A stretch of DNA of 64,000 nucleotides from an uncultured Chlorobiaceae bacterium (GCA_964410105.1 CAYPFY010000003.1:16754-80753); one strand, 5' to 3'. Positions 11,115 to 49,147 are shown, counted from the first letter of the stretch. Numbers and translations: made by a program. The notes: generated by a model not told the origin, from the letters alone.

Positions 11115-11128
11115 TCGAGGGAGCCGAC

Positions 11129-29847: not shown

Positions 29848-31794
29848 ATGGCAGGAAAAATAATTGGAATCGACCTCGGAACCACAAATTCCGTGGTCGC
29901 AGTGATGGAAGGAAATGACCCCGTCGTGATCGCGAACTCGGAAGGGGCCCGCACGACGCCCTCCGTCGTGGCATTCACCAAAGGAGGCGAGCGCCTCGTC
30001 GGACAGGCTGCCAAACGGCAGGCGGTGACGAATTCCCAGAATACGATTTTTTCCATAAAGCGGTTCATGGGACGGTTCTTCAACGAGGTTACCGAGGAAA
30101 TGAAGCTCGTCCCCTACAAGGTGGTCCAGGGAGAGAATGTTACGGCGCGCGTCCAGATCGGTGATCGCGTCTACTCGCCGCCGGAGATCAGCGCAATGAT
30201 CCTTCAGAAGATGAAGCAGACGGCCGAGGATTATCTCGGCACGAAGATCAGCGATGCGGTGATCACCGTCCCCGCGTATTTCAACGACGCGCAGCGGCAG
30301 GCCACCAAGGAAGCCGGGGAGATCGCAGGCCTTAACGTCCGGCGCATCATCAATGAGCCGACCGCCGCGGCCCTCGCCTACGGCCTCGACAAGAAACATA
30401 AGGATATGAAAGTTGCCGTCTTCGATCTCGGCGGAGGAACGTTCGACATTTCCATCCTCGAGCTGGGCGAAGGCGTTTTTGAAGTGAAGTCGACCAACGG
30501 CGACACTCATCTCGGCGGAGATAATTTCGACCAGCGCCTCCTCGACTATATCGCCGATGAATTCAAGAAGCAGGAAGGGGTGGATCTCCGTAAGGATCCG
30601 ATGGCCCTCCAGCGGATGAGGGAAGCCGCCGAGAAAGCGAAGATGGAGCTTTCGCAGCTCCTCCAGACGGAGGTTAACCTCCCGTTCATCACCGCCACAA
30701 GCGAGGGGCCGAAGCATCTCAACCTCAATATCACCCGTGCGAAATTTGAGCAGCTGGTCGAGGACCTCATCCAGCGCTGCATGCCTCCGGTTGAAAAGGC
30801 TCTCAGCGATGCAGGCCTGAGGCCGAACCAGATCGATGAGGTCATACTCGTCGGCGGAATGACCCGGGTCCCGCGGGTCCAGCAGCTGGTGAAGAGTATT
30901 TTCGGCAAAGAAGGACACAAGGGAGTCAATCCGGACGAGGTGGTTGCCGTCGGCGCCGGAATCCAGGGCGGAGTCCTCTCAGGGGACGTCTCCGATGTGC
31001 TCCTCCTCGACGTTACCCCGCTCACGCTCGGCATCGAAACGCTCGGCGGAGTCATGACGCACATGATCACAGCCAATACGACGATCCCGACCAAGAAGAG
31101 CGAAATCTTCTCTACCGCTTCCGACAGCCAGCCCTCGGTCGAGATCCATGTCCTTCAGGGAGAACGACAGTTCGCCGTCGATAACCGCACGCTCGGCCGC
31201 TTTCACCTCGACGGAATCCCACCGGCTCCCCGGGGGGTCCCCCAGATCGAGGTCACCTTCGATATCGACGCCAACGGGCTTCTCCATGTGGCCGCCAAGG
31301 ACAAGGCGACGAATAAGGAACAAAGCATCCGGATCACGTCCTCCAGCGGATTGAGCAAGGAGGAGGTGGAAAAGATGAAGGCCGATGCCACCGCCCACTC
31401 GGCGGAAGACAAGAAGCGCAGGGAAGAGGTCGATACGAAGAATCAGGCCGATACCCTCGTGTTCCAGACCCGGAAACAGATGAAGGAGTTCGGCGAGAAG
31501 ATTCCGGCCGACGTGAAATCGAAGGTCGAATCGGCCGCCGACGCCCTCGAGGCTGCCATCAAGTCGGGGAATATGGCCGATATCAAATCGAAGATGGAGT
31601 CCCTCAATAACGCCTGGAACGAAGCGTCCGGAGCCATGTACCAGGCGGCAACTGCCGCCGGAGGCGCTGACGCGCACGGCGGAGCGGAGACGACGCCTCC
31701 CCCCCCGGGAGGCCCTGCCCCGGAAGCGAAAAAGCAGGCGGGGAAAGCCGTTGAGGACGCCTCCTTCGAGGTTGTCGACGATAAGGATAAATGA
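29848..31794 (+). CDS. dnaK: chaperone DnaK (Hsp70)
   Basis: The start [19 protein letters not shown] is preceded by the RBS AAAGGAGAGAAA. Motifs [12 protein letters not shown] and [14 protein letters not shown] are present. The upstream 50 codons of the listed ORF are not DnaK-like. Confidence 0.95.
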
Positions 31795-31918
31795 CCCTAT
31801 TGTCGGCACTCGGCGGGAGAGACGGCGCACACGGTTCGTCACCGGCGGGCGGGTACGATTCTCAACAAAATCGGCTGCACGAGCTCACCGCCCGCGGGAA
31901 CTGATCACTCAGCTATAG

Positions 31919-31962
31919 GAAGCCGCCGCTGATCGCTGAGGCGATCGGCGTGCGGCTTTTTC
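31919..31962 (+). terminator. rho-independent terminator downstream of dnaK
   Basis: A GC-rich imperfect hairpin (GAAGCCGCCGCTGATCGC ... GCGATCGGCGTGCGGC) is followed by TTTTT. Confidence 0.5.
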
Positions 31963-31989
31963 ATTGACCAGGAAAAGGATGGAATTTTT

Positions 31990-34617
31990 ATGAACTTTAA
32001 TAAATTCACGATTAAATCACAGGAGGCGGTCTCGAACGCGCAGGAGATCGCCGCCAATTACCAGAATCAGGCGATCGAATCGGAACATCTCCTTGCCGCC
32101 CTTGTCCAGGACAGCCAGGGGGTCGTCGTCCCGCTCCTCCAGAAGGTCGGCGCGAATGTCGATTATATCAAGATAAAAATCAACGAAGCGATCGAGCGCC
32201 TTCCCAAAGTATCGGGCGTGACCAACCATTACGCCGGCGGCACCCTGAATCAGGTGTTCGACGCCGCCCTCAAGGAGGCCAACCTTCTCAAAGACGAATT
32301 CATCAGCACCGAACACCTCCTTCTTGGCCTTCTCACGATCAAGTCCGCCGCCGCACAGCTGCTCACCGACCAGGGGGTGACCAAGGACGAACTTTACAGG
32401 GCGTTGAAGGATATCCGGGGGTCCCAGCGCGTGACTGACCAGACCCCTGAGGAAAAATACCAGTCCCTCGAAAAATTCGGCCGCGACCTTACCGACCTTG
32501 CCCGCAATGGGAAACTCGACCCGGTGATTGGACGTGACGAGGAGATCCGGCGCGTTCTCCAGGTCCTCTCCCGCCGTACGAAGAATAACCCGGTCCTTAT
32601 CGGCGAGCCGGGCGTCGGCAAGACCGCCATCGCCGAAGGCCTCGCACACAGGATCATGCAGGGGGATGTGCCCGAGAATCTGAAGTCCAAGAGGATCATC
32701 GCCCTCGATATGGGGTCCCTCATCGCCGGCACGAGTTTCAGGGGGCAGTTCGAAGAAAGGCTGAAAGCCGTCCTCAAGGAGGTCACTGAATCCAACGGCG
32801 AGATCATTCTTTTCATCGATGAGCTCCATACGCTCGTCGGGGCCGGGGCGGCTCAGGGTGCCGTGGACGCCGCCAACATGCTGAAACCCGCCCTCGCCAA
32901 GGGTGAGCTCAGGGCGATCGGCGCGACGACAATCGATGAATACAGAAAATATATTGAAAAGGACCCCGCCCTCGAACGCCGGTTCCAGCCCGTGCTTGTC
33001 GACGAGCCGTCGGTCGAGGATACCATCTCCATCCTCCGGGGCCTCAAAGAACGCTACGAAGTGCACCACGGAGTGCGCATCACCGACGGCGCGATCGTCG
33101 CCGCCGCCCAGCTCAGCTACCGCTATATAAGCGACCGCTTCCTTCCCGATAAAGCCATAGACCTCGTCGATGAAGCGGCGTCGAAGCTCCGTATCGAGAT
33201 CGACTCGATGCCTGAGGAGCTCGATGAGATCGAGCGACGCATCAAGCAGCTTGAGATTGAACGGGTGGCGGTGATGCGGGAGAAGGATGATGAGTCGCGG
33301 GACCGCGTCGCCACGATCCAGCGCGAGCTCGCGGACCTCAATCAGAAGCGCACCAGCCTCCGTGCACACTGGGATGTCGAAAAGGAGCTTATTTCCTCGA
33401 TCCGCAAGATGAAGGAGGAGATTGAGGCCGCAAAAGCCGAGGCCGACCGGAATGAGAGGGAGGGAAACCTGGCCAAGGTTGCCGAGCTGCGTTATGGCGT
33501 CATCGCGTCTCTGGAAAAAAAGCTGAAAGAGGCAGGTGCCAAGCTCGCCTCAGCACAAAAGGACAAGAAAATGCTCAAGGAGGAGGTCGACGCCGACGAC
33601 ATCGGCGAAATCGTCTCCCGCTGGACGGGCATCCCCCTCAACCGGATGCTCGAAAGCGAACGCTCAAAGCTCCTTCACCTCGAAGAAAGGCTCCACCGGC
33701 GAATCGTCAACCAGACCGAGGCGGTGCATGCCATCAGCGACGCGATCCGCCGCAGCAGGGCGGGCCTGCAGGATGAAAAACGGCCGATCGGCTCGTTTAT
33801 TTTCCTCGGGACGACCGGGGTGGGTAAGACGGAGCTTGCCCGCGCCCTGGCCGAAGAACTCTTCAATGACGAGAATGCCCTCGTCCGGATCGATATGAGC
33901 GAGTACATGGAAAAATTCTCCGTCTCGCGCCTCATCGGCGCCCCGCCCGGCTACGTCGGCTACGAAGAGGGGGGCCAGCTGACCGAAGCGGTGCGGCGCA
34001 AACCCTATTCCGTCGTGCTCCTCGATGAGATCGAGAAGGCCAATCCCGAGGTTTTTAACCTGCTCCTCCAGCTGCTCGAGGACGGCAGGCTCACCGATAG
34101 CAAGGGTCGCACGGTCAATTTCAAGAATACGATCATCATCATGACGTCCAACCTCGGCTCGCAGCTCATTCAGGAGCGGCTCGCCGGAAAGGCAACACGG
34201 AACGGCGACCTGGAAAAAACATACGGCGAACTCAGGGTGGCGCTTTTCGAGATGCTCAGGCAAAACATCCGGCCCGAATTCCTGAACAGGATTGACGAAA
34301 TCATTCTGTTCAAACTGCTCGGGAGAAAGGAGATCCGCAGCATTGTCGACCTTCAGCTGGCCCGCGTCCATCAGATGCTCGAAGACAAGCATATTTCTCT
34401 CGAAGTCTCCGAGGAAGCGAAAGACTGGCTCGGTAAACTCGGCTACGACCCGACCCTGGGCGCCCGGCCCCTCAAGAGGGTTATTCAGAAATATGTGGTG
34501 AACAAACTCTCGGAGCGCCTGCTCGCCGGGGATTTCTCCGACGGCGATACGGTCTCTGTCGAGCTCGATAAACGGGGCCTCATCGAGTTTGTGAAAAGAA
34601 TTCCCGCCGTAGCCTGA
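31990..34617 (+). CDS. clpB: ATP-dependent chaperone ClpB
   Basis: 875 aa. It has two AAA+ modules ([15 protein letters not shown] and [17 protein letters not shown]), a coiled-coil middle domain, and a Clp N-domain. Confidence 0.95.
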
Positions 34618-34631
34618 CTCATTTCACCGAT

Positions 34632-34662
34632 GGCGGGGAAGATCCCCTTTTCCCCGCCTTTT
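34632..34662 (+). terminator. rho-independent terminator downstream of clpB
   Basis: The hairpin is GGCGGGGAAGATCCCCTTTTCCCCGCC, followed by TTTT. Confidence 0.55.
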
Positions 34663-34758
34663 GTGACAGGGTTTTCCTCCCCGCAGAAAACTCTTTGCTT
34701 ATCCTTCCGGATTTTAGTACTTTTAATCCTCCAAGTGTATTCCCACGATTGACAATCT

Positions 34759-35661
34759 ATGATTTCTCTCATCGTCCACGGCGGCGCATGGGACATCCCC
34801 GAGCGCGAAATCGACGCTCATCGCCAGGGATGCCTTGCGGCGGTTAATCTCGGCTGGCAGCTCCTGCAAAACGGACGCAGCGCTGTGGATACCGTCGAAC
34901 AGGTCGTCCGGTTGCTCGAGGATGACGTGACGTTCGATGCCGGGAAGGGTTCCCATTTGAACGCCGCGGGAGAGGTTGAGCTGGACGCAAGTATCATGGA
35001 CGGGACTACCTTCCGGTGCGGCTCGGTTGCCGCAGTGCATCGCGTCTCAAACCCCATCTCCCTCGCCCGCAAGGTCATGGACGAGAGCGAACATGTGCTC
35101 CTCGTCGGAGAGGGCGCAGAACGGTTTGCCGCCGAATGCAAGCTTGCCCTCTGCAACCCCGAAGAGCTGATTATCCCGCGGGAAAGGGCGCGATGGGAAT
35201 CTTTGAGAGGGAAGGCTCGTTTTAGCTCAAAAGACGCGTTCATGAAGACCGCAGGCGATACCGTCGGCGCCGTGGCGCTCGACAGCAAGGGAAAAATCTG
35301 CGCCGGAACCTCGACCGGGGGTACGCTGAACAGATATCCGGGTCGCGTCGGCGATTCACCCCTCATCGGCTGCGGCTCCTATGCGGATTCCGCCGTCGGA
35401 GGAGTCTCCGCCACGGGCTGGGGGGAGGCGATTATCAAGGTGGTCCTTTCGAAGACTATCATCGATATCATGGACACGAACGGGCATGATCCGCAGGCCG
35501 CCGCCTCGCGAGGCATCGAGATTCTTAAGGTCAAAGCGGAGGGTTTTGGCGGAGTGATCGTGATGAACCGTGAGGGGTCCGTCGGCTTATCCTATAACAC
35601 CCCCCGCATGGCCCGCGCATTCATGTGCTCCGGCATGGCCGAGCCCGTCGCATCAGTATGA
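34759..35661 (+). CDS. isoaspartyl peptidase / L-asparaginase (Ntn-hydrolase, plant-type asparaginase family)
   Basis: The N-terminal LIVHGGAW and the autoproteolytic site GDTVGAVALD, with Thr as nucleophile, are followed by GTSTGG. Confidence 0.85.
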   Translation: MISLIVHGGAWDIPEREIDAHRQGCLAAVNLGWQLLQNGRSAVDTVEQVVRLLEDDVTFDAGKGSHLNAAGEVELDASIMDGTTFRCGSVAAVHRVSNPISLARKVMDESEHVLLVGEGAERFAAECKLALCNPEELIIPRERARWESLRGKARFSSKDAFMKTAGDTVGAVALDSKGKICAGTSTGGTLNRYPGRVGDSPLIGCGSYADSAVGGVSATGWGEAIIKVVLSKTIIDIMDTNGHDPQAAASRGIEILKVKAEGFGGVIVMNREGSVGLSYNTPRMARAFMCSGMAEPVASV

Positions 35662-36989
35662 ATCCCTCGTCACTGACCGGCCATATGCTCGAGCTCCTAG
35701 GCCGGATCAATAATAACCACCATCCACCGGATCGCATCGTCTCCGATTTCTTCCGGTCAAGGACATATCTGGGATCCCATGACCGCCGCGTCATCGCCGA
35801 ATCGGTCTTCAACCTCCTACGCTACCGCCGGGGCGCCGAGGCCCTGCTGCAGCAGTTTGCAAAAACGTCGGGCAAGGAGTTCACGGAGGGCCCCGGTCGC
35901 TTGATCCCGCTCCTGGCTGCCTCTGGAATCATCCACCCGCCGGAAGCTCCCCCATTCCAGATTCCGAGATCAGTCTGGGTTGAAAAACTCCCGGATCTGG
36001 ATATGGAAGTGTTTCTGAGCTGGATCCGGGCACACGGGGGCTTTGATTTTCTTGACAAAGACGACCCCGAAACACTCGGCGTACGCTACTCTTTCCAGGA
36101 CTGGATGGTCGGGGAATGGGAGGCCCGCTATGGCGCTGGAACGGAGGGACTTCTCCACGAGCTGAACGCCCCCGCCCCCGTTACTCTGCGCGTGAATTTT
36201 TCAAGGGCGACGCGGGAAGAGTGCCGCTCCAGATTACAGGGTGAGGGAATTGAAAGTGAGCCGACGAGACTGTCTCCGGCAGGCCTCACGGCAATGCGAA
36301 GGTTTTCCGTGGGATCCTCTCAAACTTTTAAGGATGGCTGGTTTGAGATACAGGATGAGGGGAGCCAGGTCGTTTCTCTCGTCGCTGACCCCTCCCCGGG
36401 CGAAACCGTCATCGACAGTTGCGCGGGGACAGGCGGGAAATCACTCCACCTGGCAGATCTCATGAGGCATTCGGGTGAGATCCTCTCGCTCGACATCGAT
36501 CCGCACCGCCTGGAAGAGCTCGGGCGACGGGCCCGCAGGCAGGGTGCCTCCATAGTCAAGGCGATGCGGCAGGTTGAGCCGGACAAACTGGCCGATGCTG
36601 TGCTCGTCGATGCCCCGTGCAGCGGTTCGGGAACTATTCGCCGCAATCCCGCCCTGAAATGGATCCCCGAATCGCTCGTCGATCGCAGCGCCGCCAGGCA
36701 GCGGGAAATCCTCGCGCGCAGCGCCCGCTTTGTCAAGCCCGGGGGAAGAATCGTCTACGCCACCTGCTCGCTATTCAAGAGGGAGAACGAGGATGTTGTC
36801 GAACATTTTCTTTCCGGCAATCCGGACTTTTTTGCCGACACCTCCGAATCGACGCTCTTCCCGGGAAGGCCGGACGTGACTCTGCTTCCCCATATTCACG
36901 GGACCGACGGATTTTTCATTTCGCGGATGAGACGACGGAGTCTCACGCCTCAGGAGTCAAATGAAAATATCTCACGAGAGGATTTATGA
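35658..36989 (+). CDS. rsmB: 16S rRNA (cytosine-C5)-methyltransferase, NOL1/NOP2/Sun family (RsmB-like) with a NusB-like N-domain
   Basis: SAM-binding DSCAGTGGKS and the catalytic block DAPCSGSGTIRRNPALKW are present. The internal Met start (MNPSS...) overlaps the asparaginase stop (ATGA). Confidence 0.85.
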   Translation: MNPSSLTGHMLELLGRINNNHHPPDRIVSDFFRSRTYLGSHDRRVIAESVFNLLRYRRGAEALLQQFAKTSGKEFTEGPGRLIPLLAASGIIHPPEAPPFQIPRSVWVEKLPDLDMEVFLSWIRAHGGFDFLDKDDPETLGVRYSFQDWMVGEWEARYGAGTEGLLHELNAPAPVTLRVNFSRATREECRSRLQGEGIESEPTRLSPAGLTAMRRFSVGSSQTFKDGWFEIQDEGSQVVSLVADPSPGETVIDSCAGTGGKSLHLADLMRHSGEILSLDIDPHRLEELGRRARRQGASIVKAMRQVEPDKLADAVLVDAPCSGSGTIRRNPALKWIPESLVDRSAARQREILARSARFVKPGGRIVYATCSLFKRENEDVVEHFLSGNPDFFADTSESTLFPGRPDVTLLPHIHGTDGFFISRMRRRSLTPQESNENISREDL

Positions 36990-37480
36990 AAAAACTTTTT
37001 CTCTTCGCCCTGGTGATTGCATCCTGTTCGCGCAAGGACGAAGCGCTGTTATACAAAGAAGGGCGCGAGGCGGAATCCCGGAAAAACTATCAGCTCGCCG
37101 CCGAGCGGTTTGAAGACATTGTCGACAGATTCCCCTCACGCCCTTACGCGGAGAGCTCGCTCGTCCGGCTTGCAGACATTTACACGAATGGCGCCAAGGA
37201 TGTTCCCAAGGCGGTTCGAGCCTACCGCCGTTACTATCTCATGTTCCCCGAGAGCAAACAGGCCCCTACGATGCTTTTTCTCTCGGGTTTTCTGTACAAT
37301 AACGATCTCCATCAGCTGGACAGCGCGAGATCGGTTTATGAAATTTTCCTTTCACACTATCCCCATCACGAGCTCGCGGCATCCGCGAAGTTCGAGCTCG
37401 AAACTCTCGGGAAAGATCCCGGGGCAGCGCTCGAACCGAGGGTGAGCTCGGGCGATTCCGGGCGGGCCGGAAGGCAGTGA
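36986..37480 (+). CDS. small TPR-like lipoprotein
   Basis: Lipobox MKKLFLFALVIASC. The rest is helical TPR-like repeats (YQLAAERFEDIV..., YAESSLVRLADIY...). It is translationally coupled on both sides (ATGA and GTGA overlaps). Confidence 0.6.
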   Translation: MKKLFLFALVIASCSRKDEALLYKEGREAESRKNYQLAAERFEDIVDRFPSRPYAESSLVRLADIYTNGAKDVPKAVRAYRRYYLMFPESKQAPTMLFLSGFLYNNDLHQLDSARSVYEIFLSHYPHHELAASAKFELETLGKDPGAALEPRVSSGDSGRAGRQ

Positions 37481-38379
37481 CCCCCCAGGACTACCGAAAG
37501 TTTTTACGGCCGGAGGTCGTCGCCAAGCTCGCCAATATGGAACTGGTGGCGCGCCTCGTCGTCGAGGGGTTCATCACGGGGCTCCACAAAAGCCCCTACC
37601 ACGGCTTCAGCGTCGAATTCGCCGAGCACCGGCAGTATATGCCGGGCGACGAGGTGAAACATATCGACTGGAAGATATTCGGAAGGACGGACCGCTACTA
37701 CATCAAACAATTTGAGGAGGAGACGAATCTCAAGTCGTATCTCATCGTCGACGCAAGCAAGTCGATGGCCTACGCTTCGGAAGGACATCCCACCAAGCTT
37801 GAGTACGCCTGCTACATCAGCGCCGCACTCGCCCACCTCATGGTCCAGCAACGCGATGCCGTCGGCCTCACAACATACGACGAGAATGTCCGGACCTATA
37901 TGCCTCCGCACGCGACGAAGGGCTATCTCACGGAGATCCTGAGGCAGCTTCAAAACCTGACCCCCGGCCAGAAGACCCGGACGGCAAATTCCCTTCATCA
38001 GGTCGCCGAACGCATCAGGCGCCGCGGACTTGTGATCGTCATGAGCGATCTGTTCGATTCGCCCGGCGACGTCATGAAGGCGCTCCGTCACTTCCGGCAC
38101 AAGAAAAATGAGGTGATCGTGCTCCAGATCCTCGATCCGATGGAACGGAGCTTCGCCTTCGGCAGGGATGCCATCTTCAAGGACATCGAAACGTCGGAAG
38201 AGCTCGCGACGCAGCCCTGGCATATTCAGAAATCATACCAGGAGGAAATGAAGCGGTTCCTGGAAAAACTCAAGAAGGAGTGCCGGGAGAATAAAATCGA
38301 CTACGCGCTGCTCGATACCACCACCCCCTTCGACGTCGCCCTTTTCGAGTATCTGCACAAACGGCAGAAATTGGGGTAA
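37477..38379 (+). CDS. DUF58 domain protein (vWA-like; MoxR/Bat-operon associated family)
   Basis: The DUF58 core is LHKSPYHGFSVEFAEHRQYMPGDEVKHIDWKIFGRTDRYYIKQFEEE...LIVDASKSM. The gene has a GTG start. Confidence 0.8.
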   Translation: MTPQDYRKFLRPEVVAKLANMELVARLVVEGFITGLHKSPYHGFSVEFAEHRQYMPGDEVKHIDWKIFGRTDRYYIKQFEEETNLKSYLIVDASKSMAYASEGHPTKLEYACYISAALAHLMVQQRDAVGLTTYDENVRTYMPPHATKGYLTEILRQLQNLTPGQKTRTANSLHQVAERIRRRGLVIVMSDLFDSPGDVMKALRHFRHKKNEVIVLQILDPMERSFAFGRDAIFKDIETSEELATQPWHIQKSYQEEMKRFLEKLKKECRENKIDYALLDTTTPFDVALFEYLHKRQKLG

Positions 38380-38509
38380 GTCCGGTGTGCAGACAAGAGT
38401 CCGTCCTCTAACCGGAAACCCGTCGGTCCAGCGTCTTCCCGCTCCGGGCTCGCAGCATTGACCGGCTTTGCGTAGGAGCAACGTTTACACCGTGTGAGGG
38501 AGAGATTTT

Positions 38510-38959
38510 GTGAGATCGAATCTGGTAATCATAGTCGTGCTCGCGACTTCTCTGAGCTGCACCGGGCCTGCCGGGTCCGAAGGGCCGATGGGGGAAGGCC
38601 TCGCATCCCTCTCCGACCCGGAGATAATGCCGACCGTCATCTATACGAATCCTGCCAATAATGCGACCGGCCGTTTGGCGGACTTCACGAACCTCGTCGC
38701 AGTTCGGTTGAATTAGGTCGTGGACGTTAGCCCCATCAGACCATCGGTGATGCTCTCATGTCCCGTCGGAGATGTATTGTTTGATACCACAGCGATCCCC
38801 GCACAGAATACGGACGCGGCCGGCCTCGGCCCGATCGATGCGAGCACTTCCTCCTTTCATTTTCTTTGGAAAATATCCCAACAGTATTCTCCCCGCATGG
38901 ATTCTTCGGCAACCGGGGCCAACAGCAACCCCTCAAAACTCCATTCTTATTCCGGTTGA
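38510..38959 (+). pseudogene. remnant of a secreted/lipoprotein gene with a Big_5/SbsA-type Ig-like domain, interrupted by an in-frame TAG
   Basis: Two ORF-track entries (38510-38716 and 38720-38959) lie in the same frame and are separated by a single stop. The combined product has a signal peptide with a Cys (LATSLSC) followed by PTVIYTNPANNATG...VAVRLN*VVDVSPIRPSVML. That pattern resembles the P-x-V-x-x-x-P-x-x-G-A-T-x-V ... F-x-x-x-M beginning of SbsA-type Ig domains. It sits at the edge of the lower-GC island. Confidence 0.3.
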
Positions 38960-39084
38960 CCCCCGAACCGTATTTCAGGGTGCTGAGCTGCCCCACCCTG
39001 AAATATGAAGACCCCAGCATCAAAGCAGCAGGCAAAGCTTCTTAGCAGATTCGAGAGCGTGTTGTTGGCGAAAGAGAAATTCAG

Positions 39085-39459
39085 ATGAAGAGATTCACGG
39101 GACGGAAAGGAATGTGCTGCAACTCTGCTATGCAGTCGAAAGATATTCCGAAATATTGCAAGCTCGATTTGATCGGAGAGGAGTTGTTGAGGATGGCAAT
39201 TACCAAAGTGGGACTTTCTGCTCGCGCGTACGATCGCATCCTTAAGATTGCAAGAACCATTGCCGATCTCGCCTGTTCAACCAATGCACATCCCGAACGC
39301 ATCAGCGAAGCGATTCAGTATAGGAGATTGGACAGGGATCTGCGGCAAGCGCAACTGAGCAATAGTTTCCGCCATGATATTGCTCCAATGATACTTAAAC
39401 AAAAAAATCCTGCCCTCTCGATACTACTGATTGAGAGCAGGATTGTCCCCTGCCGTTAA
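39085..39459 (+). pseudogene. orphan 3' fragment of a comM/yifB (Mg-chelatase-like AAA+ ATPase) gene, copy 1
   Basis: Residues ...GEELLRMAITKVGLSARAYDRILKIARTIADLACSTNAHPERISEAIQYRRLDR match the extreme C-terminal Mg_chelatase_C helix bundle of YifB/ComM (E. coli ...LGLSIRAWQRLLKVARTIADIDQSD...EAVSYRAIDR). No AAA+ or Lon-like N-terminal part is present upstream. Confidence 0.55.
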
Positions 39460-39505
39460 GTGGTTGCTTCCTCAGCCTAAGGTCTTCTCACCATACTGTT
39501 TCGTG

Positions 39506-40378
39506 TCACTTCACGCGTTGAATAGTTATTCGAGCCACGGGATTCTGCCATCCGTGCAGAGAGGGACTTAGATTTCCTACTCCGAGGATGCCCCGATGGT
39601 GAGAGATGACATCGTTCGTTGCGGTGCGATTGTTGCCGTCTGGCGGCATGGAGACGGGACCGATTGAACCACATGGATCGACGATGCTCGTTGAGAGTTC
39701 ATCGTTCGCTTCGGTGCCAGCATCGTAGCCATTTGTGTAGAAGACCTTCGATTTATAGCCGCCAGGAAGTTTTACACCATCAAGGCCTGTGAAGCCATCG
39801 TTAGTGCAGATAAGCATCGTAGCCACGGAAAGACGCTTTGCTTGATCTGCCGTGGTGATTCGGAATGTTCGGGAATTGGGTCCCGGACCGCCCACCCGAT
39901 GTATCGGCGCATTGATGACAACAACGTCGAACACACCTGCGCGAGTTTTCAGATCTGTTTCCGCCACGCTCGGATCGCCATTTTCGGCAATCAACCGAAT
40001 CCCCTCTGAAGCGGCAGCGCCAATTTGAAATAGATGGACGTTTTTTGTATGGGTTGCGATCACGCCCGGTGAAAACGGTTGACCAGTCGTAAGATTCTCA
40101 ACCGTCACGTCGTACATCTTAAGGGCATCGTCATCCGCCGACTCCGTGTCATCGTCACTCTCTGATCCAGCGGTTTCTTTTGCAAGATTTTGTTGAGAGC
40201 CTATTCCTGGATCCGTCGAGGCGTGCATATCGCCGGACTTGCTCGAGCAACCGGATAGAACCAAAAGCGCCACAGGGACGGAAGCAACCACTAGGATCAC
40301 TAACGATGGAAAAACTGCGGTGAGTTTCATAATCGATCTCCTTGATATGTCAGAGAGAGAGTTGTGAACTGAATACAC
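39506..40378 (-). CDS. lipoprotein with a spondin_N-like domain
   Basis: Signal peptide with lipobox (LLVLSGCSS) and an acidic low-complexity linker. The block MYDVTVENLTTGQPFSPGVIATHTKNVHLFQIGAAASEGIRLIAENGDP recalls bacterial Spondin_N proteins (TxxNLTxxQPxSPxxxxTH). The family assignment is from memory and was not searched. Confidence 0.5.
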   Translation of the reverse strand: MYSVHNSLSDISRRSIMKLTAVFPSLVILVVASVPVALLVLSGCSSKSGDMHASTDPGIGSQQNLAKETAGSESDDDTESADDDALKMYDVTVENLTTGQPFSPGVIATHTKNVHLFQIGAAASEGIRLIAENGDPSVAETDLKTRAGVFDVVVINAPIHRVGGPGPNSRTFRITTADQAKRLSVATMLICTNDGFTGLDGVKLPGGYKSKVFYTNGYDAGTEANDELSTSIVDPCGSIGPVSMPPDGNNRTATNDVISHHRGILGVGNLSPSLHGWQNPVARITIQRVK

Positions 40379-40556
40379 AAGGTAGCATATACCGTCACAA
40401 AACTATTGCGGAAGCTTAACATTTTAATAAAGGTTGAAACGATTGCGGCTCGACCCAGTCACCACGCATTTTAACCGGCCTTCACTCATGATACTTTTGT
40501 GACAAATTTTCCTATCTTTATACGAGAATGAGCACCGAAAATTCATACAGACAACG

Positions 40557-41279
40557 GTGAAACGAGTACTCATCATTGAAGACGATACAGCGATTGCCAA
40601 CCTGGTGGAAATCCACCTCAAGGATTTGGAATGTGCTGTCGACAAGGTTGCTGACGGCGCCGAAGGGCTCACGAAGGCGTGGGCGGGACGGCATGACCTG
40701 ATCATTCTTGACCTTATGCTTCCCAGCATGAGCGGACTTGACGTCTGTAAAGAGATTCGATCTGTGAACAGGACTATTCCAATTCTCATGCTGACTGCTC
40801 GATCGGAGGAATTTGATCGTGTCCTCGGACTTGAATTAGGTGCCGACGATTACTTGACGAAACCGTTCAGTGTGCGTGAGCTCGTGGCTCGAGTTAAGGC
40901 GATCTTTCGCCGGGTTGAGGTTGCAAAGCAGGAGCAACAGCAAGGCGAGATGAACGCACTAACCATCGGAGAGATTGCAATTGATCCTCTCAAGCGACGA
41001 GTAACTCTGAAGGGTGAGAAGATCGAGCTGACCGCTAAAGAATTTGACCTGCTCCGAATCTTCATGCAGAATCCTGGCCGAACCTACTCTCGACAGGAGC
41101 TTCTGGACATCGTGTGGGGGTACCACTTCGACGGGTACGATCATACCGTGAACTCACACATCAACCGACTTCGGACAAAAATCGAAACAGATCCATCCAA
41201 GCCGAAGTACATTCTCACCGTCTGGGGCGTCGGATACCGATGCGCCGAAGTAGAAGAAATTGAGTTAGGAAATGCCTAG
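40557..41279 (+). CDS. OmpR-family response regulator (second copy, on the island)
   Basis: The protein contains RVLIIEDD, DLIILDLMLPSMSGLDV, LMLTARSEE and GADDYLTKPFSVRELVARV, plus a winged helix. It is divergent from the lipoprotein gene across a 178-bp intergenic region. Confidence 0.9.
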   Translation: MKRVLIIEDDTAIANLVEIHLKDLECAVDKVADGAEGLTKAWAGRHDLIILDLMLPSMSGLDVCKEIRSVNRTIPILMLTARSEEFDRVLGLELGADDYLTKPFSVRELVARVKAIFRRVEVAKQEQQQGEMNALTIGEIAIDPLKRRVTLKGEKIELTAKEFDLLRIFMQNPGRTYSRQELLDIVWGYHFDGYDHTVNSHINRLRTKIETDPSKPKYILTVWGVGYRCAEVEEIELGNA

Positions 41280-42735
41280 ACTCTTTTTCAAGAGTCTGTA
41301 CTGGAAGATTTCCGCCGTCTTCCTCCTGCTACTTCTCCTTCTCGGTATCGCCTTTAACTTTATCACGCTGTTCTCTACTGAAATGTACTTCCAGGAGGGA
41401 AATCAGCGGCTTCATCGTCGTTTTGCCAGCTTCGTTGCAGATTTATTACAATCGTACAGCAGTACCTCGCTTGACCAAGGTGAAATTCAAAAGGTGTTCG
41501 AACAGGTGAACAAGATGAATCCGAGCGTCGAGGTGTATCTCATCGATGAGCAGGGAACCATCCTCTACTCATCTACGCCGTTTGAGAACTTGAAGCTTCA
41601 TCAGATTGACATCCAACCCATTAAGAAATTTCTTGCTGTAGAAGGTAAACAATTTACGATGGGAGAAGATCCGAAAGGTATCCATAAAGAAAAGGTGTTC
41701 ACCGCCGCTCCGTTCGTCTTTCATGAGAAAAAGGGTGGCTACGTGTACGTGATTTTAGGCGGTGAGGAATATGATTCAGCTCTTCAGTTTATTCAACAAA
41801 ACTACATTCTCCGTCTCGGCGTTAAAACGCTCATCATCAGTTTGATTGCCGCAGCGATCATCGGCTTGCTGAGCATCGGATTCCTCACCCGTCGTTTATA
41901 CAGGTTGACAAAGGCAATGACTGAATTCAGTATCGGCAACTTTTCACAGCGGGTTTGTAACGTGAGCGATGATGAGATCGGCACAGCCGCACGCACATTC
42001 AATCAGATGGCAGAAATGATTCAACGGCATGTTGATGAGCTTGCGGCAATCGATTCGTTGCGTCGGGAACTTATTGCGAATGTTTCGCACGATCTCCGCA
42101 CCCCGTTGTCATCAATGCAGGGGTACGTTGAAACAGTGATTCTTAAAGACGCATCTCTTACGACCAGTGAGCGTCAAAAGTACCTTCAGACGATTCTTGA
42201 GAGCACGATCAAACTCAACGCGCTTGTGCAAGAATTATTTGAGTTGAGCAAACTCGATGCAAGGCAGACATTGCCAAAGCCGGAGTCATTCTCGCTCTCG
42301 GAACTCGTCCAAGATGTCGCGCAAAAGTTTCACCTGCGGGCGGAGAAGAATAATATTCAGATTGATACGTCTCTCCCCAACGATCTTCCGTTCGTTCGAG
42401 CAGATATTGGGATGATCGACCGAGTATTGCAGAACTTAATAGAAAACGCCATCAACTACACGGCAGCAAATGGACGCATAACCCTGCACGTAGCCCGCGT
42501 TGAGGACAAATTGCGCGTTGATATTGCCGATACAGGATGCGGTATTCCTGCGAGGGACCTTGCCAGCGTGTTTGACCGTTTTTACCGGGCCCGAAGTAAC
42601 CGCTCAGCCAATGATGGCACAGGTCTGGGGCTGGCGATTGTGAAGAAGATATTGACGCTCCACGGCGAGGATATTCACGTGGAGAGTCGTGAGCATGTTG
42701 GGACCAGATTCTACTTCACGTTACCATTGTCCTGA
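41272..42735 (+). CDS. sensor histidine kinase (second copy, on the island)
   Basis: Two transmembrane segments flank a periplasmic domain of about 150 aa. The H-box is VSHDLRTPLSSM. The N-box is LIENAINYTAANG. The G-boxes are ADTGCGIP and GTGLGLAIV. It overlaps the response regulator by 8 nt. Confidence 0.9.
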   Translation: MPRLFFKSLYWKISAVFLLLLLLLGIAFNFITLFSTEMYFQEGNQRLHRRFASFVADLLQSYSSTSLDQGEIQKVFEQVNKMNPSVEVYLIDEQGTILYSSTPFENLKLHQIDIQPIKKFLAVEGKQFTMGEDPKGIHKEKVFTAAPFVFHEKKGGYVYVILGGEEYDSALQFIQQNYILRLGVKTLIISLIAAAIIGLLSIGFLTRRLYRLTKAMTEFSIGNFSQRVCNVSDDEIGTAARTFNQMAEMIQRHVDELAAIDSLRRELIANVSHDLRTPLSSMQGYVETVILKDASLTTSERQKYLQTILESTIKLNALVQELFELSKLDARQTLPKPESFSLSELVQDVAQKFHLRAEKNNIQIDTSLPNDLPFVRADIGMIDRVLQNLIENAINYTAANGRITLHVARVEDKLRVDIADTGCGIPARDLASVFDRFYRARSNRSANDGTGLGLAIVKKILTLHGEDIHVESREHVGTRFYFTLPLS

Positions 42736-42764
42736 AATTTAACACGTTATGCCCTTCTGATATG

Positions 42765-42988
42765 CAGTCGCAAGATATTCAGAGCTAGTGTAGGCTCGAT
42801 TCAGCGGAAGAAGAGTTGTTAAGAATGGCAATTACGAAACTGGGGCTTTCCGCGCGAGCTTATGATTGCATTTTGAAGGTGGCACGCACCATTGCTGACC
42901 TCGCGGCTTCAACCGATATTCGTCCCGAGCATATTAACGAGGCACTACAGTCCAGAAGCGCGGACAGGAATTTGTGGCAGAGTGGATA
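42765..42988 (+). pseudogene. orphan 3' fragment of a comM/yifB gene, copy 2 (diverged direct repeat of copy 1)
   Basis: The fragment translates to ...EEELLRMAITKLGLSARAYDCILKVARTIADLAASTDIRPEHINEALQSRSADRNL, which is the same Mg_chelatase_C end as copy 1 in the same orientation. Identity to copy 1 is roughly 75% at the nucleotide level over about 215 bp. It begins about 30 nt after the histidine kinase stop. Confidence 0.5.
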
Positions 42989-43399
42989 GCGATCAGAACA
43001 GCAGCACTTGAAAGAAATTTGATTGACTAAGTTTTAGCATCATTCAGATTGACTGATACTTGTATTTCTTGAGTAAAGTGAACAAATTTGCACTCGTTTA
43101 TCGCATGAATCTCACCCCATTTTTCACATCGTGACAATTGAATTATGAAGTTCAGTGCTCGGAACAGATCATAAGGCAGGATCACTGCAGTTGAGGATCC
43201 TCAGCTCAAAGTCGGTGATACGGCTTAGGCCGTCATCAAATCTACGAAACTATTATCGGAAAGGATGGTCTCCCAATGTCCTCTTTCTGCCCTCGGAGAG
43301 TTGCTAATGTTGTTCAATGAGACAATGAGCCCGTGGATGGCTGATCCAGCGAAATAAGGAGTCAGTACACATCATTCGGTCGATTCCTGACTCGGTTAT

Positions 43400-45712
43400 T
43401 CACTCCATTCCTAACTTCCTCAAAAACACACCGTAGCGTGTGTCTGAGCGCAGATTTTTGAACCGCGGATCGACCTTGACCCATGGCAAGTGGTCGTCAC
43501 CCTCCTCAATTCCCTTGTTGAGATATTCGAATGCTTTGTCATTATCCCCCGCCCGTGCATACAATACGGAAAGTGTCCAGGGATAGTGGTAGCCCTCCTT
43601 CTCGAGATAAAGCTCGATAGACTTCAGCACAAATCCATTCCAGCCCGAATGTGAGAACGCACGTCGCAGTTCCACTGTGTCAGCAGGACTTGACCAGAAT
43701 TCTGATCCGGCGAGGTAGTGAGAAACGGCTTTGTCATAAAACCCTTTCTGTTCATCAATCAGTCCTGATAGCCAGACCCAGGGTGTGACCTGCAGCTGTT
43801 CAAGGGCAAGATCACTCCGACCTAAATGGAAGTACGAGAGCGCCAACTGCTGACCTAAAAGATTTGACAGCGGATCACGCTGGTAGGCAAGCCTATTCTG
43901 CTTGATCGCCTCCTCGAACCGTCCCATCGCGAGCAGGGCATAAGCGTATTCCATGTAAGACCACGCGTATCCGGGGTTAAGTTCGATGGCCTTTCTGAAT
44001 TCACTCTCGCCATCTGCAAACTTCCAATCGGAAAACACCTTTACATAGCCGAGCGGGCCATGCGCCTCACCGAGGGAACTGTCTATCTCCAGAGCTTTTG
44101 TTGCAGCCGCCCGTATCTTCGGTACTGCCTCCCTCGCGGGCATCAGTTCACCGGAGACTAGAAGGTATGCTTCAGCAAGTCCAACGTACGCTGAGGCATA
44201 TGATGGGTCTATCTCGATTGCCTTTTGGAAAAATTCTACTCCTTTGCTAGATCCGTTTGGCCCCGTGCAATTAATTTCATAGCGACCTTTCAGATAGAAT
44301 TGGTACGCTTCAGTGTTCTCAGTATAACGTCTGGTGAGCTTTTGCCGCTCTTCGCCGGTCAACCTCACCCTCAAATTCTGCAGAATATTGTTCGCAATTT
44401 CCTCTTGAACAGAAAAGATATCGGCAAGCTTTCGGTTGTAGTGATCTCCCCAGATCTGACTCTTGTCATGGGTGTCCACAAGTTCGGTCTTGATTGAAAT
44501 CTCGTCCCCTCGGCTGAGAACTCTGCTCATCAGCACGGCACGGACGCCGTTTAAATCCTTGCTGACTGCCTGCGGGTCAATCAGCCGGTGCTTGTATCCT
44601 ATCACGGAGCTGAACGCCGTCACCCTCACATTGGGCAATCGAGAAAGATTGTCAATGATGCTTTCTGCAACTCCATCGCTGAAGTACTCGAGGGTTGTAT
44701 CCGCGCTCTCATTGACGAACGGCAATACTGCAAGATCGATCCCATAAGAGTGTCGTGGAAATAAGAACAAGCTTATGGCAGCAACCAACACAGCGAGACC
44801 GATTCCCCCAACATATAGGTGACTTCGCTTTACCCGATAGATCATTGCCCTGATCGGATGGAGTTTCAGGGTGGAAGTCTCAAGCTCCGTCGCAATCTTC
44901 TTGAGGTCCGTGATCATATCCTGAATTCGTTGGTATCGATTGCGAGCGTTCCGCTGCATTGCTCTACCGGCAATCCCGACCAATTTCAACGGGACCTCCG
45001 GACGGACCTTTAGAATCGGCACTGGGTCGTCGTGGAGGATCTGGTAGATGATCGCCTGCTCATATTCGCCGGGAAACGGAAGCTTTCCGGTCATCATCTC
45101 ATACATCATGACGCCGAGCGACCAGATGTCGGTCCGCTGATCGACCTCCTCGCCGCGCGCTTGCTCGGGTGACATATATATGACCGTCCCGACAATCGAA
45201 CCGAATTTGGTGAGACGTGTTTGACCGGAGAATCTAGCGATTCCGAAATCGAGAATTTTCACGACGCCATCGCCGGTCACTATGATATTTTGAGGCTTGA
45301 TGTCACGGTGGATGATGCCGGACTGATGCGCCTTTGATAATCCTTGCGAGATCTGAATCCCGATTTCGACGGCTTCCTTTACGTCAAGAGGGCCCCGGGC
45401 GATTTTCTTTGCGAGCGTCTCACCTTCATAGTATGCCATGCTGATGAACAATTGCCCCGGCCCTTCGGGACCATGTTCGGTCTCCCCGATTTCATAGATT
45501 GTGCAGATGTTCGGATGGTCAAGTGCTCGCGCCGCCCGCGCCTCGTGAATGAACCGTTCTCTTGCTTCCGGATCGGCTGTGACGTCTCTCGGCAGAAACT
45601 TCAGCGCAACAGGGCTCTTAAGTCTTGAGTCCTCCGCCTTGTAAACTATGCCCATCCCGGCTTCGCCGAGTTTTTCCACAATCCTATAGTGCGAGATTGT
45701 TGAGCCGATCAT
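43400..45712 (-). CDS. transmembrane Ser/Thr protein kinase with an extracytoplasmic TolB-N-like module and TPR repeats
   Basis: The N-terminal Hanks kinase has GxGxxG-like YRIVEKLGEAGMGIVYKA, catalytic HRDIKPQNII, DFGIA and the activation-loop GTVIYMSPE. A transmembrane helix at about aa 300 is followed by LPFVNESADTTLEYFSDGVAESIIDNLS and then several TPR-like repeats (AYVGLAEAYLL..., EAIKQNRLAYQRDP...). Confidence 0.85.
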   Translation of the reverse strand: MIGSTISHYRIVEKLGEAGMGIVYKAEDSRLKSPVALKFLPRDVTADPEARERFIHEARAARALDHPNICTIYEIGETEHGPEGPGQLFISMAYYEGETLAKKIARGPLDVKEAVEIGIQISQGLSKAHQSGIIHRDIKPQNIIVTGDGVVKILDFGIARFSGQTRLTKFGSIVGTVIYMSPEQARGEEVDQRTDIWSLGVMMYEMMTGKLPFPGEYEQAIIYQILHDDPVPILKVRPEVPLKLVGIAGRAMQRNARNRYQRIQDMITDLKKIATELETSTLKLHPIRAMIYRVKRSHLYVGGIGLAVLVAAISLFLFPRHSYGIDLAVLPFVNESADTTLEYFSDGVAESIIDNLSRLPNVRVTAFSSVIGYKHRLIDPQAVSKDLNGVRAVLMSRVLSRGDEISIKTELVDTHDKSQIWGDHYNRKLADIFSVQEEIANNILQNLRVRLTGEERQKLTRRYTENTEAYQFYLKGRYEINCTGPNGSSKGVEFFQKAIEIDPSYASAYVGLAEAYLLVSGELMPAREAVPKIRAAATKALEIDSSLGEAHGPLGYVKVFSDWKFADGESEFRKAIELNPGYAWSYMEYAYALLAMGRFEEAIKQNRLAYQRDPLSNLLGQQLALSYFHLGRSDLALEQLQVTPWVWLSGLIDEQKGFYDKAVSHYLAGSEFWSSPADTVELRRAFSHSGWNGFVLKSIELYLEKEGYHYPWTLSVLYARAGDNDKAFEYLNKGIEEGDDHLPWVKVDPRFKNLRSDTRYGVFLRKLGME

Positions 45713-46225
45713 AGGGGTGCATTCACCAGCCGATTTTTTGAGTGTTCCGTTTTTTCACGTACTGATCACGCCCGGAAATTCAGTCGATAAGAGTATGACA
45801 CAACTGAGCAATCTGTTGGTTCATTCCCACATGACTTCTTCGGGCATTTGTCAAGGAAACGATTACAGGATAAGCGGATGATTGACGCGCTCCACGTGAG
45901 ATGGTTTATTGGGATATGGGTTGGCCGATCGTGATTCTCCTCTACCCCCGAAAATCGAGAATCGAAATGAACGAAACGACTGAAACTAAGAAGAATATAT
46001 CTGATTGTCAAAACTAACAACTCGTGATCGAAAAACCAACGAAGTTTGTCCGCGGGCAGTGACTTTGCGAACATGGCCGACGATGGACGATAGCACCGAT
46101 CGAGGCCGGATCCAGGGGCTTTTGTGCCATGAAGGTGACATGGCAAGAAGGCACCAGACCCTTCCTCTTTCGCTCTCGTTCGCTACGGGGAACTGAAGGC
46201 GCCCGCACGCGGGATCGCCCTGTAA

Positions 46226-49147
46226 TTGCATGTTTCTGGCCCATTCGATAAATTGACATCGAAGGTCTCGTTCCCTTCTCACTTTTTCCCTTGGAAAACT
46301 TTGGAAACGCTCGTCGTCAAGGGCGCCCGCGTCCATAATCTGAAAAATATCGACGTGGAGATGCCCCGCGATAAACTGATAGTCATCACGGGCCTCTCCG
46401 GCTCCGGCAAATCGAGTCTTGCGTTCGATACGATTTACGCCGAGGGGCAGAGACGGTATGTCGAAAGCCTCTCCGCGTACGCCCGCCAGTTTCTCGGCCT
46501 CATGGAAAGGCCCGATGTCGATAAAATCGAGGGGTTGAGCCCCGCGATATCGATAGAGCAAAAGTCGGTCTCCCATAACCCCCGCTCCACAGTCGGTACC
46601 GTCACCGAGATCTACGACTACCTGAGACTCCTTTTTGCCCGGGTCGGGATCCAGCATTGTTACAATTGCGGCCGGAGAGTCCAGAGGCAATCAGTCGACC
46701 AGATCATCGATGCCGTCATGTCGTACTCTTCCGGCTCGAAGATCCACATCCTTGCGCCCGTCATCCGGGGGCGAAAAGGCCATTACCGTGAACTTTTTGA
46801 GGAAATCCTTCGGGAAGGCTTCCTTCGCGCGAGGGTCGACGGCGAGATCAGAGAGATTTCGCGGGGGATGCAGGTCGACCGCTATAAGGTGCATAATATC
46901 GAGATCGTCGTGGATCGGCTCTCCGTGAAGGGAGATATGCGCAGCCGCATTGCTGATTCCATCGAAACAGCTCTCCGGATGGGGTCCGGGCTGGTCATCA
47001 TCGACTCCGGAGCCAAGGAACAGCTTTTCAGCCAGCATCTCGCCTGCCTCTACTGCGGGATAAGCTATGATGAGCCCGCTCCGAATTCTTTTTCGTTCAA
47101 TTCGCCCTATGGCTCATGCCCTTCCTGCAGCGGGCTCGGCGAAACAAAGGAGTTCGATCTGGACCTCATCATGCCGAACCGCTCACTTTCCATTAACCAG
47201 GAGGGGCTCGCTCCGCTCGGAAAGCCGCGCGACACATGGCTCTGGCGACAGGTCCGGGCGGTGGCTTCAAGATTCCAGGCGGATCTCGACCAACCCCTTT
47301 CCCAGCTTCCAAAGAACTTTGTCGATGTCCTCATCAAAGGGGGAGGGAATGAAAAATTCGACATTCGTTACACCTACTCGACGGGCCGCATCGCCACGTA
47401 CCGGCAGCGGTTCGAGGGTCTGCTGAAGATGCTGAAGCATTACTACGACCAGACCTCCTCCGAGGGAATCCGGCAATGGGTGGAGTCTTATATGCGCACG
47501 AAAGCCTGTCCCCTGTGCGGGGGAGGACGGTTGCGCCGCGAGAGCCTCGCCGTCCGCCTTGTCGACTCCGAAACCGCCCGTGAAGTCAATATCCGCGATC
47601 TGGTGCAATTCTCAATCCGGGAGGCTTTCGGTTTTTTCTCACAACTGCACCTGAGCGCCCGCCAGATGGAGATCGCCCGGCAGGTTTTGAAGGAAATAAC
47701 GCAGCGGCTCGGTTTTCTCCTCAACGTCGGCCTCGATTACCTCACGCTTGACCGCTCCGCGCGCACCCTTTCCGGAGGAGAAGCGCAGCGCATACGGCTT
47801 GCCACCCAGATCGGCTCACGCCTCGTCGGCGTCCTCTACATCCTCGACGAACCGAGCATCGGACTTCACCAGCGGGATAACGTGAAGCTGATCGACAGCC
47901 TCAAGGAGCTGAGGGATATGGGTAACACGGTCATCGTCGTCGAGCATGACAGGGAGATGATCCGCTCCGCCGATTACCTTGTCGACCTCGGACCCGGCGC
48001 CGGCGAACACGGAGGCCATGTCGTCGCGACAGGGAAACCCTCCCGGCTCCGGATGGGAAAATATGACGGCGCTTCGTCGTCGACTGCCGAATATATAACC
48101 GGGAAGAGAATCATCGAACTTCCCAGGAGCCGGCGGGACGGTTCGGGCAATGTCATTAGGCTCCGGGGTGCCCGGGGGAATAACCTGAAATCGGTGACGC
48201 TCGCGGTCCCCCTGGGAAAATTCGTGTGCATCACGGGGGTGAGCGGCTCGGGGAAATCGACGCTTATTTCAGAAACCCTTTACCGGATTTTGTCCAGAAA
48301 GTTTTATAAGTCAAAAGACGTCCCGCTCCCCTACGGTTCCATTGACGGCCTCGCCTATGTCGACAAGGTGATAGAGATCGACCAGTCCCCCATCGGACGT
48401 ACTCCCCGCTCAAACCCGGCGACTTATACCGGCTTATTCACGTATATCCGGGATCTCTATGCGCAACTTCCCGAGGCGAAGATACGGGGCTATAAGGTGG
48501 GCCGGTTCAGCTTCAACGTGAAGGGGGGACGCTGCGAAGAATGCCAGGGGGACGGAGTCCGGAAAATTGAAATGAATTTCCTGCCCGACGTCTATGTCCT
48601 CTGCGAAGTCTGCAAGGGAAAAAGATATAACAGGGAGACGCTCGAGATTCTGTTCAAATCGAAATCCATCGCAGATGTTTTGAATATGACCGTCGAGGAG
48701 GCCGTCACTTTTTTCAGCGAAATCCCCCGCCTCCGCCGAAAGCTCGAAACCCTGCGAGATGTCGGCCTCGGTTATATCAGGCTCGGCCAGCAGGCAACAA
48801 CCCTCTCCGGCGGGGAAGCCCAGAGGGTCAAACTCTCAACAGAACTCTCCAAGGTGGGGACCGGAAAAACTCTCTATATCCTTGATGAGCCCACGACCGG
48901 GCTTCATTTTGAGGATATCCGGATGCTCCTCTCGGTTCTGAATAAGCTCGTCGATAAGGGAAATACCGTCGTCGTCACCGAGCATAATCTCGACGTGATC
49001 AAGACGGCCGACTGGATCATCGACCTGGGACCGGAAGGGGGGAAGGAGGGGGGTGAAATCATCGCCGAGGGAACTCCAGAAGCGGTTGCCAGGAACCGAC
49101 GCTCCTATACGGGGATGTTTCTGAAGGGGGAATTGAAACTCTCGTAG
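46226..49147 (+). CDS. uvrA: excinuclease ABC subunit A
   Basis: Two ABC ATPase modules are present ([12 protein letters not shown] and [11 protein letters not shown]) with zinc-finger Cys clusters. The probable true start is the in-frame TTG at about 46301 ([31 protein letters not shown]...), matching canonical UvrA N-termini. The 25 residues upstream of it are non-homologous. Confidence 0.9.

Follow-up and report, generated by a model that had tools for sequence, protein, structure and literature searches.

Mobile elements that use a large serine recombinase (LSR) to enter comM are already on record. Phage WO of Wolbachia, with its recombinase sr1WO, and elements in the survey of Durrant et al. 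(2022) have the same target gene, comM/Mg-chelatase, as the elements treated here, and WO-type elements carry the LSR at one end and one or more HTH_XRE genes at the other, with portions of the target gene flanking them. Of the predicted site-specific LSRs, 12.4% target homologs of Mg-chelatase/ATP-dependent protease (PMC10083194). The TIGER supplements list serine-integrase elements that interrupt comM (PMC7192596), and secondary intergenic attachment (att) sites, together with rearranged fragments that keep a piece of the gene, have been documented (PMC9203015). The gene is the most common target of serine integrases. Here we analyze a 64,000-nt stretch of DNA from an uncultured Chlorobiaceae bacterium (the window; coordinates are counted from its first letter), in which two fragments of comM, copies A and B, lie within a 7.85-kb island. 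The copies are probably relics of boundary modules that delimit the cassettes of a comM-targeting LSR element family, and the window would then hold an ectopic piece of a cassette array.

Tandem accretion of elements at a conserved gene provides a second point of comparison. The ICESt1/ICESt3 family at fda in Streptococcus thermophilus is an example of cis-mobilizable elements (CIMEs) and of accretion-mobilization. Tandem genomic islands at ssrA in Dehalococcoides are another (PMC3146451). Like these CIME/accretion arrays, the arrays that we describe below in Ignavibacteriota relatives are made of recombinase-less, att-flanked tandem cassettes at one conserved gene, each delimited by a copy of the target's 3' portion. 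The known arrays, however, involve tyrosine integrases and short repeats of the extreme 3' end, whereas the repeats here are coding segments of 486 bp and the associated integrase is of the serine type; the arrays in relatives fit the CIME architecture and are candidates for cis mobilization, and in the window the att sites are destroyed. Unlike WO-type elements, the window contains no LSR and no 5' part of comM and lies away from that gene, and the Ignavibacteriota arrays keep comM intact and carry cassettes without a recombinase.

The features on which this comparison turns are as follows.

38380-46225, no strand: two-cassette island, 7.85 kb between DUF58 and uvrA, delimited by composition and by the empty site in relatives
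38983-39342, plus strand: copy A, decayed piece of comM covering ComM residues 391-510 (68% identical by tblastn, E 1e-46)
42750-42974, plus strand: copy B, decayed piece of comM covering ComM residues 436-510 (76% identical by tblastn, E 1e-29)
45766-46151, minus strand: decayed double helix-turn-helix (HTH; XRE) gene, its ~16 first codons (46104-46151) still recognizable
46104-46155, plus strand: att-junction remnant (nhmmer profile positions 14-65, E 5e-4)

Listing and translation of the open reading frames (ORFs) revealed ComM C-terminal sequence in two segments, both on the plus strand. Their extents were defined by tblastn, the query being the intact ComM (510 aa) encoded on the related contig L003. 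The ORFs at 39085-39459 and 42816-42989 match PF13335 (Mg_chelatase_C) at E 5e-23 and E 2.5e-16, respectively, and a DNA profile (nhmmer) built from 24 related modules, each comprising an XRE 5' end and a comM fragment, detects copy A at 38995-39350 (E 6e-83) and copy B at 42757-42981 (E 5e-54). A preliminary description of this DNA had called the segments ComM C-termini in the same orientation, which Pfam and tblastn bear out, but the extents it gave needed revision: copy A begins at 38983 and is 135 nt longer, and copy B occupies 42750-42974. It had also regarded the copies as diverged, at about 75% identity. We measured 73% over the direct repeat (39124-39347 versus 42756-42979) and, over the 75 shared codons, 72% at the nucleotide and 68% at the amino-acid level. 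The longest identical runs between the two are ~11 nt, and the alignment that had been recommended for defining an att core yields no shared identical core. Neither the N-terminal/AAA+ part of ComM, nor any further comM piece, nor an intact comM was found by tblastn in the 64-kb window, which extends to the whole stretch the earlier remark that no AAA+ body lies upstream.

Both copies have decayed. Copy A is interrupted by an in-frame TAG at 39043-39045, and its stop codon is mutated, such that ORF 39085-39459 reads on to 39459; copy B carries an in-frame TAG at 42786-42788 and starts 15 nt past the stop codon of a sensor kinase gene. Comparison of the translations reveals invariant ComM positions altered by substitutions in both. 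Neither copy amounts to a complete, uninterrupted ORF with ChlI N-domain, AAA+ core, and C-domain, as a functional ComM/YifB would; each has a C-domain match colinear with intact ComM, as a fragment of such a gene. Judged from their sequences, copies A and B are 5'-truncated pseudogenes, inert today, and most of the divergence between them predates pseudogenization. ORFs 39085-39459 and 42816-42989 should accordingly be annotated as pseudogene scars and not as genes.

The database proteins most similar to copy A are, with few exceptions, orphan ComM C-termini of only 89-211 aa, whose named sources are Ignavibacteria, with several orphans per contig. In related Ignavibacteriota contigs, one to three cassettes stand downstream of an intact comM, each closed by a comM fragment in the same orientation. 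Their cargo includes an arsenic-resistance operon, a chromate transporter, a dehydrogenase/peptidase/AraC set, a hybrid kinase, and secreted proteins. All of the array fragments start at ComM residue 349 (486 bp), and homology extends as far as the stop codon of comM. Each fragment is adjoined, on the other strand, by a conserved double-HTH (XRE) gene whose start overlaps the Pro-Cys codons of comM. Copies in one array are 62-87% identical to the L003 ComM in amino-acid sequence (tblastn). The proposal that comM-derived repeats delimit horizontally acquired cassettes thus finds a counterpart in a recurrent system among Ignavibacteriota relatives, and the alternative once offered for the window, in which a cassette has the fragment as its end module, comes close to the array architecture seen there.

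Scanning metagenomes with the XRE alignment returned 80 loci. An antisense comM fragment adjoins 49 of the 78 XRE modules that have enough upstream sequence, starting exactly at residue 349 in 42 of these 49, and the remaining modules have unrelated DNA upstream. Regardless of the upstream DNA, the 5' end of the module is a nearly invariant TGCGTTGCC, and synonymous sites there are far more conserved than in the rest of the gene, a pattern that marks the terminus of an element or the core of a recombination site. The per-gene Pfam tables of the array contigs contain no recombinase, and none is among the top 25 families in a Pfam summary of 133 array ORFs, a weaker result than the per-gene tables because rarer families fall outside the summary. 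Separately, tandem arrays of two to four XRE-led cassettes without comM fragments occur at L116:6172-15974 and also at L132 and L155, the repeated part being the XRE gene and at most ~50 nt upstream. At L099:1175-1765, the N-terminus of an ORF (CxxC...CPxC), by eye the zinc-binding region of an IS91-type transposase, runs into the XRE 5' end and, on that visual reading, would be another kind of partner at the XRE junction.

The origin of the XRE module is indicated by loci L134 and L144, in which it forms the C-terminal 140 aa of a 643-aa LSR (L134:8501-10432). At the LSR/XRE boundary in L134, residue 500/501, lies a perfect inverted repeat, GGCAACGCA-N10-TGCGTTGCC. This type of LSR has thousands of close relatives; the best 120 matches (homologs P0241-P0360) share 60-95% identity and bear source names across several phyla. 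Two length classes occur, one of ~645 aa with C-terminal HTH domains and one of ~500 aa without them, which, together with the inverted repeat at 500/501, fits an attP inside the LSR-XRE ORF. LSRs of ~500 aa stand head-on to a comM truncated after '...AMNP' (~residue 348) in a Planctomycetes genome (L171), a deltaproteobacterial metagenome-assembled genome (MAG; L174-177), and a predicted viral contig (L180); the attL arrangement in these loci is the same as in WO-type elements. When attP, attL, attB, and attR are aligned, the crossover falls at the Pro348/Cys349 codons: the attP sequence is GGCAACGCAACTTCACTCCTGCGTTGCC, the comM attB contains GCGATGAACCCTTGTTTGTGCGG, and the junction core is AACC/ATGT. 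The insertion point in relatives is therefore the AMNPC codons (347-349), 486 bp inside comM as counted from its stop. On this alignment, the XRE/comM(349-510) junction is the attR of comM-inserting LSR elements, and the element splits its own LSR-XRE reading frame on integrating.

The integrases of SSV1 and Mx8, which are tyrosine recombinases, have their attP inside the integrase gene. As in those elements, integration here partitions the recombinase frame, which explains the ~645- and ~500-aa LSR classes; unlike in SSV1 and Mx8, what is parted from the LSR core is a double-HTH module with a start codon of its own. With the WO recombinase, the LSR-XRE family, in which XRE is the C-terminal part of the LSR frame and attP lies inside the ORF, is compared by arrangement and not by homology. 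LSR targeting of Mg-chelatase/comM is already published; a limited literature search turned up no description of LSR-less arrays with an intact comM, nor of the LSR-XRE design with attP within the ORF. The elements that retain the recombinase carry a CBASS operon (SMODS, E2-CBASS, SAVED) and BrxR in L174:3994-9981, and genes for a TraG/TrwB-like coupling protein and for PDDEXK and Macro domains in L171:3092-8990, cargo that hints at defense islands and conjugative functions. Scans of viral contigs with the XRE protein or with a single LSR sequence returned nothing, and a scan with the LSR alignment returned three loci, one of which has the comM attL (L180). The closest relative of the L134 LSR (95% identity; L173:620-3120) is directly followed by a second Recombinase/Zn-ribbon ORF and not by comM or XRE, an arrangement that may reflect integration into another recombinase gene or a tandem element.

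In the window, a probable remnant of a third module lies at the right end of the island. A protein hidden Markov model (HMM) for XRE, built from the N-termini of 81 modules, matches 'PSCHVTFMAQKPLDPA' at 46104-46151 on the minus strand (E 3.6e-5), its best match in the whole window. This XRE remnant is located upstream of a Ser/Thr kinase (STK) gene on the same strand, and the gap to the STK start fits a gene of ~142 aa, as in L087; cassettes with XRE, then STK, then a comM fragment are also found in L086 and L087. The match of the overlapping att remnant stops ~5 nt beyond the canonical XRE/comM-349 junction, its core GGTTGCGTTGCC is shortened by a 6-nt deletion, and it adjoins the upstream spacer of uvrA, not comM. 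The putative terminal XRE gene with its att core is a short match of the right strand and spacing, but it lacks 6 nt of core and its partner is not comM. The double-HTH XRE gene is the conserved right-end gene of these cassettes. That the right end of the island is an att terminus of the element suggests entry at a secondary site, as for WOCauB3.

Composition and synteny set the island apart from its surroundings. GC content is 47-51% over ~38.9-46.2 kb versus 57-60% on both flanks, and GC content at third codon positions (GC3) is 0.51-0.59 in island genes versus 0.67-0.78 in flanking genes. Two syntenic relatives (L169 and L170) have the order ClpB, asparaginase, RsmB, YfiO, DUF58, a 273-bp spacer, and UvrA, and are colinear with window positions 29847-38368 and 46303-49089 at 70-78% DNA identity, their DUF58 being 82% identical. 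Because DUF58 lies directly beside uvrA in these relatives, 38380-46225 is an insertion and comM is not native to the locus; on the evidence of this synteny, the island was inserted where comM had never been. Within it, the order is copy A, cassette 1, copy B, cassette 2 (the kinase and the decayed XRE gene), and the element terminus. Cassette 1 has lost its XRE gene by deletion, as the comM fragment after it has lost its first 87 codons.

These observations can be assembled into a sequence of events. In this family an LSR integrates its element at the AMNPC codons (347-349) of comM by way of an attP inside the element's LSR-XRE frame, which leaves the LSR core beside the comM 5' part (attL) and the XRE gene beside comM residues 349-510 (attR). 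In the Ignavibacteriota relatives, recombinase-less comM'(349-510)-cargo-XRE cassettes have piled up in tandem downstream of intact comM. How they do so is conjectural: an LSR element that enters intact comM next to a relic attR may excise via an alternative attL x attR pair, and this excision would leave or remove a cassette with comM restored, analogous to CIME accretion-mobilization. Exact boundaries at residue 349 and the strong divergence among array copies support such alternative excision. What lies ectopically between DUF58 and uvrA is probably a 7.85-kb piece of such an array from a donor of lower GC content, which would have entered their spacer through a secondary att site. The copies in the window probably descend from attR-side modules (comM 349-510 and XRE). 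More tentatively, and with some doubt on our part, excision by alternative, relic attR sites might both deposit and pick up such cassettes, and so build integron-like arrays that restore comM while gathering cargo, among it two-component systems, kinases, and resistance to arsenic or chromate; the window would be a fossil of a multi-cassette element at a secondary site. The related loci suggest that integration may leave ordered, recombinase-less arrays with comM repaired, and that integration severs a very widespread family of LSRs from its XRE tail. If true, cargo could accrete at a competence gene by a route that is open to testing, and the split may give a built-in directionality switch in an integrase family of biotechnological interest.

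Several observations weigh against an origin of the island from comM-targeting LSR elements. Copy A starts at residue 391 and copy B at residue 436, not at 349, and neither has an adjoining XRE gene or a TGCGTTGCC core; sequence and profile searches found no XRE or LSR remnants beside either copy. Both lack the residue-349 junction, and an attR origin is argued from their context and their likeness to the family. The stretch read as an att remnant (46104-46155) is short and its matches are modest (E 5e-4 and 3.6e-5), and a matching junction is not preserved at the left end of the island. Neither tblastn nor profile HMMs detect a trace of an LSR in the island, and the window has no LSR gene at an end, no residue-349 attR, and no comM 5' part, as an LSR element would. 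Among the relatives, none of the 21 loci that have more than one comM piece (256 kb altogether) yielded an LSR core, and the account given above for cassettes with a restored comM is therefore a conjecture. Nor does the model account for a GC-rich segment of 600 bp that separates DUF58 from copy A (38380-38983) and is twice the length of the relatives' whole spacer. This segment contains a 68-aa lipoprotein-like ORF (38510-38716), and no homologs of it, of the copy A tail, or of the spacer between copy B and the STK gene were found in any of the loci compared. Finally, one intact comM, in L006, has a compositional breakpoint at ~codon 376 rather than 349 (likelihood ratio 62 versus a median of 4 among 66 comM genes), which points to homologous recombination in at least some events.

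That breakpoint bears on an account in which the cassettes spread without a site-specific recombinase, the 486-bp comM 3' segment acting as a homology arm for RecA-dependent recombination after transformation and the constant residue-349 boundary being inherited from one ancestral junction. comM marks naturally transformable hosts, no recombinase is present in any array, and the L006 gene is a chimera whose GC3 falls from 0.84 to 0.48 inside the homologous stretch. By GC3 change-point analysis, the chimeric signal is strong in L006 only, modest in L160, and absent in L003. Array copies that are 62-87% identical to the L003 query are, however, a poor substrate for homologous recombination; the conserved DNA core at the XRE terminus also joins partners other than comM; and the same junction is demonstrably an LSR att site. 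We consider this account unlikely as a replacement for LSR-mediated integration, with which it can coexist as a secondary route. As an observation in its own right, at L006:3071-7400, from an Ignavibacteria MAG of 62-65% GC, a Ser/Thr kinase gene of low GC content lies downstream of comM, and neither an XRE gene nor an orphan fragment is nearby; the locus has the look of a replacement inside comM by homologous recombination.

The preliminary description had favored two successive 3'-end integrations at a resident comM, each carrying a replacement 3' end, with later loss of the 5' body. Its topology of diverged, same-orientation repeats around cargo fits, and the same topology is present downstream of intact comM in relatives. 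What makes such an in situ origin highly improbable is the locus itself: DUF58 and uvrA are adjacent across the 273-bp spacer with colinear flanks, both syntenic relatives lack comM there, both fragments and all of 38.9-46.2 kb are compositionally foreign, and the window offers no comM body or remnant of one, no integrase, and no shared identical core. We also give very little credence to the fragments being functional stand-alone genes, in which a small ComM C-terminal-domain protein (ORF 39085-39459 here, ORFs of 138-166 aa elsewhere) would be paired with a divergent XRE regulator. ORF lengths of 138, 144, and 166 aa do recur in the database, and an ATG (MATQPC...) stands exactly at the junction, but the recurrent lengths match conserved internal Met codons of ComM, several copies are frameshifted, and both copies in the window are truncated at the 5' end, contain in-frame stops, and have conserved residues mutated or missing, while their amino-acid identity (68%) is not above their nucleotide identity (72%). 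A chimeric assembly might be suspected from the metagenome source and from an island that differs in GC content from its flanks. The island junctions are, however, 100% identical in the separately assembled L165 and L166 (runs SRR12313477 and SRR12313478), L167 reaching DUF58 only; this agreement of independent assemblies disposes of the mis-assembly concern raised earlier and leaves the chimera next to no probability.

Other classes of mobile element were considered and rejected. The Tn7-like AbaR/Tn6022 elements of Acinetobacter share comM as an insertion hotspot, and integrons share arrays of cargo cassettes, but both differ from the present case in junction chemistry and position. The ORFs of the island encode no TnsABC(D) domains, and there are no terminal inverted repeats and no 5-bp duplication; the only Tns trace is a subthreshold, HTH-only match to TnsD in a related XRE protein. 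The 3'-end or Tn7-like type of element first suggested for the window also gives way in the relatives, whose elements insert 486 bp inside comM via an LSR. As for an integron, the repeats are coding fragments of 225-486 bp and not attC, and no IntI was found. An island driven by a tyrosine integrase was dismissed on the lack of an integrase domain in the five large island ORFs (Pfam) and on identical runs of ~11 nt at most between copies A and B. A tRNA, tmRNA, or structured RNA as att target was likewise rejected, since no tRNA gene is present in the window and no Rfam match in 37.5-47 kb.

The cargo of the island and its chromosomal flanks consist of the following genes.

37477-38379, plus strand: DUF58/VWA gene, left chromosomal flank (Pfam; synteny with L168-L170)
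39506-40378, minus strand: cassette 1 lipoprotein with a Spondin_N domain (PF06468, E 2.8e-10; signal peptide and lipobox from the translation)
40557-41279, plus strand: cassette 1 OmpR-family response regulator (Pfam Response_reg and Trans_reg_C)
41272-42735, plus strand: cassette 1 HAMP/HisKA/HATPase sensor histidine kinase (Pfam)
43400-45712, minus strand: cassette 2 Ser/Thr protein kinase with TPR repeats (Pkinase E 2e-48, and TPR), convergent with copy B
46226-49147, plus strand: uvrA, right chromosomal flank (Pfam UvrA domains; blastn synteny; homology to relatives from 46303)

By Pfam, the genes on the left flank encode RsmB, a YfiO-like protein, and DUF58, and that on the right UvrA. 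The lipoprotein/two-component system and the kinase are to be regarded as horizontally acquired cargo. No close homolog of cassette 1 (Spondin_N protein, response regulator, and kinase) was found in the other arrays, in which only distant two-component-system matches occur. In a further relative (L168:10945-12786), DUF58 is 81% identical, and an alpha-amylase-family gene and an ABC ATPase gene lie downstream instead of uvrA; the downstream boundary of DUF58 is thus a recurrent point of rearrangement in this lineage. Elsewhere in the window, GC content dips to 0.52-0.535 in the 1-kb bins 11001-12000, 15001-16000, and 29001-30000, against a background of 0.57-0.62.

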